DNA from: Ginglymostoma cirratum
Taxonomy: Eukaryota
Direction of reading: 5' to 3'
Assembly (NCBI GenBank): GCA_024137785.1
Contig: JAHRHZ010000021.1
Coordinates: forward strand, 24,388,895-24,452,894
DNA: 64,000 bases
Position 1 is the stretch's first letter. Each line of letters opens with the position of its first letter. Shown here one piece after another: positions 1 through 43,724 of this stretch. Made by a program: the position numbers and the translations under genes. A model generated the notes under the pieces. The model did no database searches and was not told where the DNA came from. It saw only the letters and a program-made list of their open reading frames with translations.

Positions 1-180
1 CCTCCACCTATCCTCTCCTCTATCCATCCTCTATCCGCCTCCCCCTCTCTCCCTATTTATTTCAGAACCCTCTTCCCCTCCCCCATTTCTGATGAAGGGT
101 TTAGGCCCGAAACGTCAAGTTTTCCTGCTCCTATGATGCTGCTTGACCTGCTGTGTTCATCCAGCCCCATGCTTGTTATC
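1..180 (+). mobile_element. 3' end/pLTR of a Penelope-like (Neptune-type) repeat carrying a hammerhead motif
   Basis: Pyrimidine-rich tract, then CTGATGAAGGGTTTAGGCCCGAAACGTC and a tail shared with 12910-13004 and 14168-14276. Confidence 0.7.
85..120 (+). ncRNA. Minimal type I hammerhead ribozyme motif
   Basis: ATTT-CTGATGA-A-GGGT ttag GCCC-GAAAC-GTC-AAGT: intact core, 4-bp stem II, stem I ATTT/AAGT (one G-U pair), palindromic ACGT stem III, GUC cleavage triplet. Confidence 0.7.
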
Positions 181-4515: not shown

Positions 4516-6671
4516 TGTCAGAGATGTGGGATTTGGATTATATAGATAATCTGGGGACCTGATGTTGTATATTATAAACAAAAGGTTATAATTATGCTCA
4601 TCCCTTAAATTAAAGTAACTACATCATGTCATAGATACCCCACATTCCAAAAGGGACTGGAGGTTGGTGTGCAAGGAGGCAGTTTTACTGTTCCTGCATC
4701 TATAAGACAGTCTTACAAAAGCACAGATATTTGACTTTTCTTCCTCAAGGTGCCTTGCAGTCGTTGTTTCAGTTTCCACGTTTCTTAGAATTAAGCAATA
4801 AACTAAGCTTTGTGCAAGATTGCAGATTATTTCCTTAACAAAAAGAGCTCATGAAATTGAAAGTAATTCCCATTCTTTGATCACTTTTGAACAAGTTATG
4901 GCATTGAGACAGAAAGTGGCAACGTTGTTCTTCAGAGTTTCAGTTAATACTTTTTTTGAAGAACGAAGACAATGCTGTTTGAGAAGTAATAGAGATTTGC
5001 TTCAAGCAATTTTTTCTGAATTATCTCCTGATTTTACCACATCCTTTTTGACATTATGAAATCAGAATTATGACCTTGCCAAATTGCCTACTGTTAAGTA
5101 ATTCCATTTTTAAAATTAATTTGATTAGAATTAATCCTAGTACATATGCATTTGAAGTTTTTGCAGTATATAGATTATTTTAGCTCAGTTTGTGATTACA
5201 GCATTTTCATTTTAATTTAATCAGGATATTTTTTCTGCAAATTAGTAGGAAAGTGAATACTTTCCAATGACACTTAGCTACTTGTTTTCTGAAATGAACA
5301 TTGTTTTGTTTCCACAAGGTCTAAACATTCATCAGGTTCTTTGATACTCTCCTTTAGTATTATACTCATACTCCAAATGGACACTAGATTTGCATTTTAA
5401 TCTGCAAAAAGTAACATATATTTTACCTGTCATAATATAGAATTGCTGAATGCTATAAAAACTACTTGTTAAGCTATCCTGCATGCGAGATTTCAGGAAG
5501 TAAGTATTAGAAGCTCGATTGGGTCCAGAAGATTCACACAAATTTGTCTCTTCTTGCCTGGCATCAATCCACGCAGCTTCCAGCATAATGTGGGCCTTCA
5601 TCCAGTAAGGGTAAATTACTGATGGTGATGAGAGGAGGCCCTCTTATTGGCCTCAATAGGGCCAAAGACGGGGTAGACCGTCTGTCGCCTCCCCCATACC
5701 CCACATAACATTTCATCCGGGTTGGGTGAAACAAGTAGGTCTTCCGCTGGATTTAACACACCTTCATTCCTGCCAGCAAGGAAGATTAAAATCCAGCTAA
5801 TTAACTCTGCTTTCTCTTCAGAAATTCTGCCTGATCTGTTGAGAGTAGTTCCAAAATTTTCTATTCACATTCCAGATTGCCAAAATTCAGTGTTTTGCTT
5901 TAGTTTTACAATCAACAGAAAAACTGTGTACCTAGAAAAGTAAAAATTTTCCCCAAAGTCTGCCTGACAGATTGATGCAGTTAATTATACTTAACTTCAT
6001 TTTGACACACGGCAGATACCAAACAAAGAAATTAAAAAAAATTGCAGTCTATTTATCTCGACCCCCGTTATCTGGTTCCCAATGCAACGCAGGAGTTTCA
6101 AATTTATTATAGAAAGGCAGGCACTTCAGATAAAGCGACGAATATTTTAACATTTCTCCTATCTCGTCATCAACCAACCAGCTTCCAAGTCACGGTATTT
6201 TGTCAAGCACGGTCTGGGTGACTCCTGTGCTGTTCTTACGATGATAGCAGTTATACAGATCAGTTACATCTCACTGTAAAATGGCTACAGAAGCATTTTG
6301 ATACAGTCCGACGTCCAGATTTTCGTTTGGAATATGTGAACGTTCAAGGACAGTGAAACTTTCGTGCCCGTAAGGCTTTGTTTATAAATTTCCTACACTA
6401 ACCATGCAATGTTACGAGAAATGGGTCCATCTCAAAATTACCAGGCAAACATGAGACTTCTGCACCTGGAGGTATTCAAATGAAAAATCATCAGCAAGAA
6501 CAGCGGTGTTCCGAACGGTCCTTCACAGTGCACTGTCCTCAGCCTTCAGAAGAGTTACCTTCATGTGTCATTTAGTTTCGCCTCTCCAATAATAAGTTGC
6601 TGGTTTGGTAGAGCCTCTGTGTGGCTATTTCATTGTGAGGGGGGATCAGTTTGATGTTCAGCTCGGAATCT

Positions 6672-7075
6672 CTGAGTTTGGTTTGTGCAGTCTCTCTTTC
6701 TCTCCATTGGTTGTACAGCCTCTCTCTATTGGTTTGGTTTATGCAATCTCTCTTTTTCTCTATTGGTTTGGTTTGTGCAATCTCTTTCTATCTATAGATT
6801 TGGTTTGGTTTGTGCAATCTCTCTCTGCTTTGATTTGTACACTCTCTGTCTCCTGGTTTAGTTTGTGCTGTTTCTCTCTCTCTAGGTTTGATTTATGCAA
6901 TCTCTCTTTCTCTCTATTGGTTTGGTTTGTGCAGTCTCCTTCTATCTATAGATTTGATTTGGTTTGTGCAGTCTCTCTCTCCAGTTTGGTTTGTGCTTTT
7001 TTTTATAGGTTTGATTTATGCAGACTGTCTTTCTCTCTCTCGATAGGTTTCGTTTCTGTAGTTTCTCTATCGGTT
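6672..7075. repeat. Imperfect ~25-35 bp minisatellite (GGTTTGGTTTGTGCAATCTCTCTTTCTCTCTATT-like) upstream of the ATG
   Basis: About a dozen degenerate units; higher-order duplication 6731-6826 vs 6885-6980. Confidence 0.9.
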
Positions 7076-12070: not shown

Positions 12071-12909
12071 GAATAGTAGTATCTTTTTGGCATCAAATTT
12101 CAGTTAATTGATTTGGTGAGAACAGCTAGAGGAACAGTGGAGAAACTGGACTGTTAACAGGAACTAGTGCTCATTGAAATTATGAATTTATTCCATTTGT
12201 ATATGGGCACTTCATTGAAATGTAGTGCCATATTTATAGAATGGCAGCATCTAATTTTACTGCAACTAGATAAGAGAAATACCAACAGATTATAAAAGTG
12301 CAATATTTAGATGGCCTATTAAATATTCTAAATTTAGCTCCAGAACTGGGTCACTGCTCACTTGTGATTTATAAGAATGTGCAAATTTACTACATTTTCA
12401 AAGCAAATTTATAAACTGAAGCAACACTTACCGACTTTTTTGCTCTTTCAAACTTTTTTTGGGACAATTCAAATTTTGTTTTAGTGACTATTTTCCGCAT
12501 AATTTTAATACCTATTTTCTAAGGTCAGACTAATTCTGTTATTGCAAACTTGCATCTTCTCAAGACAAGTATAATACAACCCCAAAGCATGGCAAAGTTG
12601 TCTTTCCTACGCTGAGTCAACTGCTGGGTATATATGCTGCTCATATAATTGAAGAAATTGGTTGTTGAAGCACACGGTTGGATTTGTTGCTGTATACTGT
12701 GGGTCTACGATATCAGCCTCCCATTGTTCATAGACCATTCTCCATGATGGAGAGAGTTGCAAAAAAAGGGACATTTTCCCTAATTTGGGGGAAGTTGGAA
12801 AATTGTGTCCGTATGAATTGTGACAGTGCTGCTGATGGAGAACAGCACGGATAAGGGAAGCTGAACTTTAAAGACTTTAAAGGAAATAATGGTCTGCTGA
12901 ATATTGAAT

Positions 12910-13004
12910 CTGATGAAGGGTCTAGGCCCGAAACGTCAAGCTTTCCTGCTCCTATGATGCTGCTTGGCCTGCTGTGTTCATCCAGCTCCACACCTTGTTA
13001 TCTC
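12910..13004 (+). mobile_element. Young Penelope-type pLTR fragment with hammerhead core
   Basis: CTGATGAAGGGTCTAGGCCCGAAACGTCAAGC...ccttgttatctc; near-identical to 89-180. Confidence 0.8.
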
Positions 13005-13890: not shown

Positions 13891-14343
13891 TTTATTTGTT
13901 AATGGGATGAGGGTGTCGTTGGCTAGGCATGTATTGCCCATCTATAATTGCCCAGAGGGCAGCTAAGAGTCAACCACATTGTGGGTCAGGAGTCACATGT
14001 AGGCCAGACCACGTAAGGATGGCACTTTTCTTCCCTAAAGGACATCACTGAACCAGATTTGTTTTTCCCGACAATCAGCAGGTTCGTGGTCATCGTTAGA
14101 TTCTTAATTCCAGATTATTATTGAATTCAAATTCCACTACCTGCTGTGGCAGGATTCGAAACCAGGTGGGTCTAGGCCCGAAACGTTAGCTTTCCTGCTC
14201 CTCTGAAGCTGCTTGGCCTGCTGTGTTCACCTTGTTATCTCAGATTCTCCAGCATCTGCAGTTCCCACTATCTCTCCCCAGAACATTATCTGGGTGTCTA
14301 AATTACCAGTCCAGCGATAATACCACTAGGTCATCGCCTCCCC
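13891..14343 (-). mobile_element. Full-length tRNA-derived SINE with CR1-type tail, interrupted by a pLTR fragment at 14168-14276
   Basis: Minus-strand head ggaggcgatgacctagtgg (A box) and ggtttcgaatcc (B box); homologous to the uninterrupted copy at 56593-56910. Confidence 0.8.
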
Positions 14344-15389: not shown

Positions 15390-16990
15390 CAATTAAACTT
15401 GGCCTGAAAGTTTCAATTGACCCAATACCTATCTTTGGGGAAGGAGAGTTTCAGATTTCCACTACTTTTGTGTAGGGAGAAAAACTTGCCTGATTTAAAG
15501 CCTAAAAGGTTTCGTTTTAATTTTAAGATTGGATCCACTTTGTCTGGAATCCCCATCATAGGATTTTTCTTTTAAGTCTTATCCACTTTACAGAATCCTC
15601 TTCATTTAAGAACAAAGAAAACTTACAGCCCAGGAACAGGCCCTTCGGCCCTCCAAGCCTGTGCCGATCCAAATCCACTGTCTAAACCTATCGCCCAATT
15701 CCTAAGGATCTGTATCCCTCTGCTCCCCACCTACTCGTGCATCTGTCCAGACGCACCTTAGAAGTTCAGTTGGATCAGCCTTCATCCTCTTAATGTCAAA
15801 GGAGTATAAGCCAAATTTATAAAACTTTTGTCAAAGCCACATACATACATTTCTGATGAATCAGTGCTGTACACACTTCCAAGTTCAGTTTATCCATCTG
15901 AAGGTGCAGTGCTGAAAACTGAATATATCACTTCAGATGTGACTGAAGCACAAGACCCCTTCAGATAAATGCATTAACTTTAGCTGATTTTCTTTATTAC
16001 TGTGCTTGCCCTTAACTTCTAGTTATTAGGACCAAATTACTGCAAATGCTGGAATCTGTACTGAAAACAACAAATGCTGGATATCACAGTGGGTCAGGTA
16101 GCATTCCTGGCAAGAGCAAGCTAACGTCTCAAGTCTAGATGAATCTTCATCAGAGCTAAAGTGGAGGGAGCAGCATTTATGTTATATTTGGGGGAGGGGG
16201 AATGGGGTGTAGGGTGATGGGGAAGAAAGGATGTTGATAGTTCAGATTAAGTGATCGGAATGTGAGAATGGCAGAACAATGGTGTATCAAACTGCCAAAT
16301 TTGAAAGAATAGACAGTGCCCCCCCCCATTACGATCACTTAATCTGAACTATCAACATCCCTTCTCCCCCAGCACTTTACACCTTCCCCCAACTATAGTA
16401 TAAATGCTGCCCCATCCACACTTCACTTTAGCTCTGAAGAATCTAGACTTAAATATTAGCTTGCCCTCACTACATGGGTGCTGCCTGACCTGCTGTGATC
16501 TCCAGCATTTGTTGTTTTCAATTTTTAGTTACTTCTGCTTATGTGCATCCATATCTGCCCACATCACCTCAATTTATAGTGCCTCATTGTGAAATTTGTA
16601 TTATTATTTGGCCTCTTTGAATCATTAGGTGATATTTTCACACTTGCCCACTTTGAAATATAGTTCTCGATTATGGCTGCACATTTTGTCTGCCTTTCTT
16701 TGTGCAGATGGGAGCAGGAAGCCACAATGTGCATTCTAATTTACTGCCATCTGTAAACTTGGATATACAACTCTCTCTCCCTTCATTGATCATTATATAG
16801 TGAAAAGCTGAGGCCCCAGTACACATCCCTGAGGAATATCACCTGTCAAATTCCACCAATCATAACACATTTGTGTTTTCCCCAATCTCTTTCTTACTTC
16901 CCAAGTAAATACAAAACCCACGCGACGAGAGTACTTCTAGTTTGGTGTGCTTTCATTTTTGCTAATCTCTAGCCTGATGCCTCTTCAAAA
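15390..16990 (-). mobile_element. Old CR1 remnant hosting a young CR1 3' tip (about 15608-15760) and a fold-back element (16062-16520)
   Basis: Decayed CR1-like phrases on both sides of the inserts; the young insert retains CpGs (caggcccttcggccctccaagcctgtgccgatcc). Confidence 0.55.
16062..16520. repeat. Long inverted repeat (~190 bp arms, ~75 bp spacer) of a hammerhead-bearing Penelope-type pLTR
   Basis: tgaaaacaacaaatgctgg / ccagcatttgttgttttca at the ends; ggatgttgatagttcagattaagtgatcg / cgatcacttaatctgaactatcaacatcc at the inner ends. Confidence 0.9.
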
Positions 16991-42487: not shown

Positions 42488-43724
42488 GTTGTAGATGTTG
42501 GTGTGTATCCCGAGCTGGGAAGTTTGATAGCAGATGTTTCGTCACCTTACTAGGTGACATCCTCAGTGCTGTGGAGCCTCCTGTGAAGCGCTATTGTCCT
42601 GTGTTGGTTCGAATTTATATTGTCTGGTTTTTGCTGTTTCCAGTAGGTGCCGGTTCTGGCTGCCCGTTGTAATGGTCGGTATATCGGGTTTAATTTCATG
42701 TGTTTGTTGATTGGAGTCTGAGGACGAATGCCAAGCCTCCAAGAATTCCCTGGCTGTCCTCTGTTTGACTTGTCTTATGGTAGTAGTGTTGTCCCAGTTG
42801 AAATTGTAGTTTTTCTCATCTGTGTGTATTGAAACCAAAGACATCGGGTCATGTTATTTAGTTGCCAGCTCATGTTCGTGGATGTGGGTTGCTAGTTGTC
42901 TTCATGTTTGTCCCACGTAGTGATTTGTGCAGTCTCCGTGTGGTATCTTGTAAACCATCCTGTCCATGGTATCTATTGGGACTTTAACCCTGGTCATTTG
43001 CCGTCCTAGTGTGGCTGCTGGATTGTGTGCTGTCATGATTCCTAGTGGCCTGAGTCGTCTGGCTGTCAGTTCTGAAGTGTTTTTTATATGTGGTTATGGT
43101 TATTGTTTCGGCTTTTGGTGTGTCCTGGTTGTGTTGTCTGTTGGCTAGGCAGCTGTGGGGGTATCCATTCCTGGTATTGACCTTGGAGAGGTGTTCTTCT
43201 TCCTCCTGCAGATTGCGTGGGTAGCAGCCCTTTTGAACAGGGTCCTAACACTGCTCCTCTTGTGTGATTTGGGGTGGTTGCAGTGATAGTTTAAGACCTG
43301 GTCAGTAAGTATGGAGTTCCTGTATACTTTTGCAGTGAGGTCACGTCCAGGAATGGGAGTTTGTTGTTTTCCTCTTCTCTTGTAAATGTGATCCCGTGAG
43401 TATGATGTTGATGAATCAGTGGGTGTTCTCACTTTCTGTTCTTTTAATAATTTCAAAAGTGTCACCCATGTATCTGATCCAGAGCTTGGGTTGGATCTGT
43501 GGGAGGGCTGTTTGTTCCAGTCTTTGCATGACTGCCTCAACTATCAGTCCGGAGATGGGTGAGCCCATGGGGAGTCCTATTGATCTGGTCGTATATCTTG
43601 CCATTGAGCGTAAAGTGTGTTGTTAAGCATAAGTCCAGTAGTTTGAATATGCAATGATTGTTGATCTGTTCCTCATTCTATCATCTGTTGCGTTCGTCTA
43701 ATAGGTTTGATATGGTTTCTTTGG
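42488..43724 (-). mobile_element. Penelope-like element (Penelope/Poseidon type), 5'-truncated: RT C-terminus, GIY-YIG endonuclease and pLTR
   Basis: GLPMGSPISGLIVEAVMQRLE, WIRYMGDTF, HPKSHKRSSVRTLFKRA, VYKIPHGDCTNHYVGQT, AREFLEAWHS; frameshifts and stops present. Confidence 0.92.
42529..42570 (-). ncRNA. Minimal type I hammerhead motif in the Penelope pLTR
   Basis: AGCA-CTGAGGA-T-GTCACCT agta AGGTGAC-GAAAC-ATC-TGCT: perfect 7-bp stem II, 4-bp stem I; ACAT is probably CpG-decayed ACGT. Confidence 0.75.

Follow-up and report, generated by a model that had tools for sequence, protein, structure and literature searches.

A minimal hammerhead ribozyme at the probable RNA start of a young, Neptune-like Penelope element of the shark Ginglymostoma cirratum

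The window analysed here, a stretch of 64,000 nucleotides from Ginglymostoma cirratum (assembly GCA_024137785.1, contig JAHRHZ010000021.1, positions 24,388,895–24,452,894 of the forward strand), opens within the pseudo-LTR (pLTR) of a Penelope element. Positions 1–84 of the plus strand are a pyrimidine-rich part of the 3′ UTR of this pLTR, which runs off the left edge of the window and lies upstream of the putative RNA start, and a minimal type I hammerhead follows on the same strand at 85–120, with evidence from sequence, descriptor, fold and covariation. Helix I consists of ATTT (85–88) and AAGT (117–120), four pairs of which one is G-U; the core CTGATGA (89–95) is followed by an extra A96, stem II pairs GGGT (97–100) with GCCC (105–108) around a TTAG loop, and GAAA (109–112) leads into C113, G114 and T115, with the predicted cut after C116. 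The hallmarks of minimal type I hammerheads (CUGANGA, GAAA, UH and the type I order) are all present, as are the extra base between positions 9 and 10.1 (A96) and the closing pair G10.1-C11.1 (G97-C108). Stem III is confined to the palindrome ACGT (112–115), and since an A112-U115 pair would enclose a loop of two nucleotides, helix III is unable to form within one molecule and is predicted to form only between two copies. An intact minimal hammerhead with a palindromic stem III that a monomer cannot close is what the preliminary description of this DNA had proposed, and every core part of it can be read in the sequence. The start of the 5′ leader of the element occupies 117–181 on the plus strand, where this copy stops at the shorter of two fixed 3′ ends, about 65 nt past the cut (+65).

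Two further copies lie in the window on the plus strand, and the preliminary description, which had the motif with its flanks repeated at 12910 and repeated in part at 14168, has to be corrected on their details. The copy at 12909–13003 is 92.6% identical to 88–180, ends at about +65 and has kept its core intact (with the loop CTAG), but the ATTT/AAGT flanks are not repeated there: the copy is 5′-truncated at T-CTGA, just inside the putative +1, helix I is lost, and the sequence after the cut is AAGC. The copy at 14168–14277, which is inserted in another repeat, ends in GTT and has an internal deletion and the long (tailed) 3′ end, begins at stem II; the 5′ half of the core, CTGATGA, is absent. 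A loose core pattern gave five matches against 1.37 expected, a number reached in one of 100 shuffles, and a descriptor that requires the stems gave 135 distinct matches in the fetched loci, most of which had been selected by the motif, against 0.6 per shuffled replicate. An Rfam scan returned no hammerhead family at E ≤ 5.

Nearest-neighbour energies, which ignore magnesium and protein, fold the monomer into an inactive hairpin (−9.3 kcal/mol) that pairs UGAUG with CGUCA over the core and leaves helix I a probability of at most 0.02, and they assign −5.1 kcal/mol to the active dimer against −28.8 kcal/mol for an inactive one that pairs through stem-loop II. Stem-loop II (97–108) is almost self-complementary, so that two RNAs could swap it into a duplex of 12 bp, an arrangement reminiscent of retroviral dimer-initiation hairpins; a self-complementary stem-loop II is absent from the other families. 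Among related motifs, a monomer did not cleave and dimers cleaved to a low extent according to PMC4209133, and the anole element cleaved only together with its own protein (PMC11167929).

Within the family the copies decay neutrally. Among 113 copies the palindrome has its CG centre in 100 and CpG decay in the other 13, and 42 of the 113 carry the AAGC variant, in which helix I is reduced to 3 bp. Across families a different pattern is seen. Helix I reads ATTT/AAGT, AGTC/GACT, AGTT/AACT, TCAC/GTGA or AGCA/TGCT in the fetched loci, and in a ten-row comparison of such motifs, the check on the stems that the preliminary description had suggested, both helix I and helix II covary: 82% of cells are paired, a value reached in none of 500 shuffles and to be set against 57% for the best slid control, and all four pairs of helix I change on both sides. 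The rows were picked by hand and are related, two rows of the AGCT family are shifted by one column and were scored as unpaired, and the search descriptor leaves helix I free and requires stem II in part. The G10.1-C11.1 pair is GC in nine of the ten rows and GU in one. In a second family with 973 exact matches, for which positions 15.2 and 16.2 were left free, a hand count of 100 listed copies found GC in 82 and CG in none. As this other family uses AGCT, the palindrome persists although its letters differ, as predicted for a helix III made by two copies. The compensatory changes in helix I and the retained palindrome point to selection on the hammerhead fold. Parts of the pLTR also occur in contigs under four other organism labels, where the listed differences within the 28-nt core are confined to N7 and loop II, a divergence too low for a selection test.

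A 29-mer of the motif has 53,004 exact matches in the 4.36-Gb genome and its reversed control none. The view of the preliminary description that the repeat is young is supported, given that positions 1–179 are 100% identical to two other loci and match many genome copies at 97–100% identity across 179 nt, with a median identity of 93.9% for 155 copies compared with one natural copy. At the 3′ side, 109 of 296 copy ends fall between +58 and +72, and another 131 lie at or beyond +95, where they peak at +99 to +101 and a few continue. The two fixed 3′ ends, 34 nt apart, constitute the Penelope tail, for which 30–40 bp has been described in Penelope-like elements (PMC8557442, PMC11167929). Inverted head-to-head pairs and target duplications of 8–16 bp are common among the copies, the duplications being present in about nine of 30 short copies inspected. 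The three window copies are dispersed, neighbouring pairs in the genome are mostly inverted, and the only short direct pair among loci L001–L030 is that of L011, 403 nt apart.

The carrier can be read from the long copies of the family. The region that matches 1–84 follows the stop codon of a GIY-YIG domain in these copies, which extend upstream into a single ORF for a reverse transcriptase (RT) with a C-terminal GIY-YIG endonuclease; RVT_1 (E = 1.4e-7) and GIY-YIG (E = 3.7e-5) each exceed the Pfam cut-off in one natural frame (L099, L115). The ORF contains DKG (L099), YIDD and a CX4CX2C linker (CNLSKCYTC in L115, CNRRKCYTC in L015). A complete element runs from a pLTR with hammerhead through the leader, the ORF and the 3′ UTR to a second pLTR with hammerhead. 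Two direct hammerheads 3.5–3.65 kb apart bracket the ORF in L182, L197 and L198, that is, in three of 20 ten-kilobase loci picked for their long 5′ reach, and in L198 the ATG of the ORF lies 138 nt past the cut. L176 and L178 have an upstream partial tandem that includes the endonuclease end of the previous copy, and L176, L178, L197 and L198 are full copies whose upstream sequence would be missing from a linear RNA of unit length. Partial-tandem pLTRs, inverted truncated copies and a tail of 30–40 bp, the hallmarks of endonuclease-bearing (EN+) Penelope elements, are all found in the family. This ORF anatomy holds at the level of the family, having been read in long copies other than that at 85, and a tblastn search of the window with the family ORF returned nothing at E ≤ 1e-3.

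Since the long copies join the pLTR to an RT and GIY-YIG ORF, the three copies in the window are best seen as truncated ends of an autonomous Penelope element and not as a retrozyme. The preliminary description had entertained both a Penelope pLTR and a retrozyme or other short repeat family; the former is upheld by the ORF of the long copies, and the latter is not supported, the copies being 5′-truncated ends of the autonomous element. The processing by two copies that it also proposed would have to contend with an active dimer predicted to be far less stable than the inactive folds and with copy 5′ ends that do not peak at the cut. Retrozymes lack coding capacity, whereas this family encodes RT and GIY-YIG, and the short-unit tandem arrays typical of retrozymes are seen neither among the window copies nor, apart from the one direct pair of L011, in L001–L030. 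A linker of the CX2-5CxxC type marks Neptune and Nematis (PMC8557442). We accordingly call the element Neptune-like, a clade label given by the linker and DKG motifs, and the hammerhead itself almost certainly belongs to the known minimal kind of Penelope elements.

We next consider where the copies begin. A 5′ end was counted when the two bases before a given 29–30-mer differed from those of the element; two mutually exclusive patterns for helix I were used, and their sum is a lower bound. Genome-wide, at least 13,260 copies (9,596 + 3,664) have their 5′ end at the opening bases of helix I and 29,397 continue further upstream, short copies thus making up at least 31% of those counted by the three patterns (13,260/42,657). 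Starts at the predicted cut number 966, compared with 1,549 at a control site 20 nt upstream (−20) that shares the trinucleotide AAG with the cut, 362 at +9 and 603 at +16; because the patterns differ in CpG content, the ratios between these counts are approximate. Of 136 copy ends that had not been selected at their 5′ end, 30 lie at the edge of helix I, four at the cut, 21 between the two, 16 downstream and 65 further upstream. The same edge recurs in two other families, where 15 of 24 ends lie within 8 nt of the core and 34 of 42 within 11 nt. There is no clear peak of 5′ ends at the cut. A footprint of cleavage had been suspected from three inverted junctions and was not supported, the 966 ends at the cut being fewer than those at the control with the same trinucleotide. 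Ends at the cut are 1.6–2.7 times above the two downstream controls; three of 30 loci inspected there are indels in intact ribozymes and about six are fold-backs at a self-complementary sequence that spans the cut. Plain junctions with flanking DNA account for 11, 9 and 11 of 30 loci at the cut, at −20 and at +9, which scales to about 350, 465 and 130 copies, respectively, and on these figures there may be a small real excess at the cut.

Several junctions carry extra sequence. In six of 98 short copies the junction repeats the first bases of the element, as would be expected of an enzyme that reaches the true end of the RNA and re-aligns. In L271, L277 and L287 the first 7–14 bases are tandemly repeated at the 5′ junction, resembling telomerase-related template re-alignment. 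Short copies that lie within or are fused to internal parts of the element, often at the edge of helix I, were observed in L033, L184 and L282.

The edge of helix I coincides with a putative promoter. The initiator consensus is YYANWYY, and an initiator-like CCATTTC lies at 83–89 on the plus strand with its A at position 85; this A is the predicted +1 and also opens helix I. A TATA-like box, TATTTAT (54–60, plus strand), lies 31 nt before A85. Among 12 natural long copies drawn from five families, nine have a spacing of 29–31 nt between the TATA-like box and the initiator-like A, against 0.1% of window positions, and three lack a strict initiator match. In the AGCT family the initiator-like A falls 7 nt before the core, where the short copies of that family stop, and in a Poseidon-like family it falls 18 nt before the core. 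By hand count, 70 of 100 listed copies have a G before the start A, compared with 13 of 100 at the cut and 19 of 100 at +9. In L1 and SVA an untemplated G is a mark of capped templates (PMC4859970), and the bases at the copy starts are suggestive of a cap-derived G, confounded by other sources: of 30 loci, 22 are preceded by G, and, judged by eye, target sequence, an inverted arm or a repeated CTG would account for all but about eight of these. We consider it quite likely that the RNA of the element starts at A85 from a TATA/initiator promoter.

Poly(A) RNA-seq reads (data set X19; 36,311 reads, unstranded) cover the pLTR on both strands, with copies in host transcripts dominating and no pile-up of molecule ends; X20 gave 19 reads. 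Two further candidates were set aside. A downstream promoter element overlapping ACGT (RGACGTGY, PMC2377424) is off by two in its spacing in this family, and a splice acceptor is contradicted by the absence of AG at that base and of a shared upstream exon. The arrangement of TATA box, initiator and hammerhead is not universal: D. virilis Penelope has its start 46 bp upstream of an intron (PMC2377424), and it is the end of this intron that meets helix I (PMC4209133). A search of mostly open-access literature found no statement, in titles or the first lines of abstracts, linking promoter, first base of the hammerhead and ends of short copies. In L198 (minus strand) the first 171 nt of the putative transcript have four ATGs before that of the ORF, and the first of these, within the catalytic core, opens a frame of 14 codons.

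The explanation that we favour, and consider probable, is that the motif is the pLTR hammerhead of a young autonomous Penelope element and likely forms the first 36 bases of an RNA starting at A85. Reverse transcription would begin some 65 or 100 nt downstream of the cut site, in line with what the anole element does in vitro, and on uncut linear RNA the enzyme would run off the 5′ end to leave solo or back-to-back copies of 95–135 bp. Since the pile-up lies at the putative start and not at the cut, the short copies are likely to be such run-off reverse transcripts of uncut RNA. Longer copies, such as that at 85, would need a template that places this region after the 3′ UTR, which could be supplied by the repeat at the far end, by tandem RNA from read-through, by a jump between templates or by a circle made by the ribozyme. 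The ribozyme, which would fold only as a pair formed by the two ends of one transcript, 3.5–3.65 kb apart, or by two RNAs, probably cuts slowly and probably needs the protein of the element. Cleavage would remove a capped leader of 32 nt that includes the start of the 14-codon upstream frame; given an ATG 138 nt past the cut, the ORF would be spared. Most dispersed genomic copies would be inert fossils.

In the model of PMC4209133, the ribozyme cuts both transcript ends as an intramolecular dimer, and long and partial-tandem copies would be templated mainly by the ligated circle. We regard this as possible but doubtful, and it is compatible with the favoured explanation for the long copies. 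The pair of hammerheads in each element, the upstream sequence in L176, L178, L197 and L198 and the retention of palindrome and helix I across families are in keeping with a circle; against it, folding predicts an unstable active dimer, copies that start at the cut are few, and tandem read-through or template jumping would give the same copies. The junction of such a circle would be equal to the genomic sequence. An extended reading, which we put forward tentatively, likens the process to retroviral strong-stop copying: the promoter would start on the first base of the hammerhead, RT would begin 95–135 nt in, its run-off would yield the tens of thousands of short and mirror copies, and the ribozyme would act as a switch that removes the cap and closes the message into a circle, from which the entire element could be copied and its promoter restored. 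If this were true, the ribozyme would fold when the ends of a transcript, or two RNAs on a dimeric protein, meet, and a single process would account for pseudo-LTRs, for partial tandems and for the role of the Penelope hammerhead, which has long been an open question.

It is unlikely, in our judgement, that the fixed 5′ end reflects something other than a transcription start, be it an RT stop, an endonuclease nick at the triplet ATT, or microhomology to T-rich target sites or inverted arms. Against an RT stop, a structural block should halt the enzyme 3′ of a fold and not past it. Many junctions are indeed inverted or show microhomology and extra T's, and the anole protein nicks 5′-ATT-3′ in its own pLTR junction (PMC11167929); the pile-up, however, also occurs in families whose edge is AGTT or ACTTCAC, which lack ATT, and the TATA spacing predicts the same base as the pile-up. 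We find it likewise unlikely that the motif no longer cleaves and is kept as a promoter, a protein-binding site or a means of RNA pairing through stem-loop II. The predicted monomer, with UGAUG folded onto CGUCA and helix I rarely formed, and the preference of two copies for the 12-bp stem-loop II duplex would suit this idea, as would the eight of nine Xenopus retrozyme dimers that did not cleave (bioRxiv 10.64898/2026.07.22.740005), but the compensatory changes of helix I and the stem III palindrome kept across families point to selection on the hammerhead fold, and the anole motif cleaves once protein is added (PMC11167929). Very improbable, finally, is a non-autonomous retrozyme or SINE-like short hammerhead family amplifying by itself: the at least 13,260 short units with fixed ends, the target duplications in about nine of 30 and the single direct pair of L011 would fit one, whereas the short copies have no TATA-like box upstream and do not differ in sequence from the end of the autonomous element, the window copies are dispersed and not tandem, and neighbouring pairs are mostly inverted.

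The motif is of a kind already in print. It shares with the minimal hammerheads of Cervera and De la Peña 2014 (PMC4209133) the core boxes, the extra base before stem II, G10.1-C11.1, palindromic positions 15.2–16.2, the lack of loop 3, the 4-bp helix I, the location in pLTRs and the occurrence mostly as single dispersed copies with some opposite-strand pairs. It differs in stem II, which has 4 bp here and 7–8 bp in families of S. mansoni, and in copy number, with at least 53,004 exact matches here, whereas coelacanth has about 4,000 copies and Xenopus tropicalis about 9,000 (PMC4209133). No shark is named in the available part of PMC4209133, and the supplementary alignments of that paper and of PMC8557442 may include shark motifs. 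With EN+ elements of the Neptune clade the family has in common the single ORF, RT, CX2-5CxxC linker and C-terminal GIY-YIG, as well as partial tandems, inverted 5′-truncated pLTRs, optional 34-nt tail and target duplications (PMC8557442, PMC3846280). A rotifer pLTR has a putative TATA box and an Inr-like TCACT; promoter, first base of the hammerhead and short-copy ends are not linked in the accessible text of these two papers.

The Anolis carolinensis Poseidon element PAc (PMC11167929) is similar in that two RT start sites bound the tail and the hammerhead lies at the junction of pLTR and ORF. Uncut RNA is the main insertion substrate of PAc, no RNA-seq reads end at the cut, RT starts internally and cleavage is assisted by protein. 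The PAc start codon, however, lies within the ribozyme, with the cut 26 bp into the ORF, unlike the shark ATG 138 nt past the cut. Non-LTR retrozymes likewise have a type I hammerhead and are related to Penelope pLTRs, but they form non-coding tandem arrays whereas the shark family is coding and dispersed (bioRxiv 10.64898/2026.07.22.740005). The function of the hammerhead in Penelope elements is called unclear in PMC8557442, and the copy ends of the shark family amount to a very large natural record. This record yields a start predicted to the single base, A85, that holds across families of differing sequence, and it argues that the short copies derive from uncut RNA; should cap mapping agree, the geometry of Penelope replication would be fixed, namely the start points of the RNA and of copying and what a cut would take away (the cap and the 14-codon upstream frame, with the ORF spared).

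The window contains other traces of Penelope elements. A second, unrelated minimal hammerhead lies on the minus strand at 42525–42570, with a stem II of 6–7 bp, helix I AGCA/TGCT and a stem III palindrome that a CpG change has destroyed; it forms the 3′ end of a broken, Poseidon-like Penelope element whose coding remnants (GLPMGSPISG, FLDV and YKIP..YVGQT motifs) span about 42560–43680; a tight pattern for it finds two copies in the genome. At 16062–16520 a 72% inverted repeat with CTGAWGAA cores, TATAAA upstream and the shared downstream motif resembles two decayed pLTRs of a further Penelope family, arranged back to back. A degenerate tandem repeat region is located at 6669–7071.
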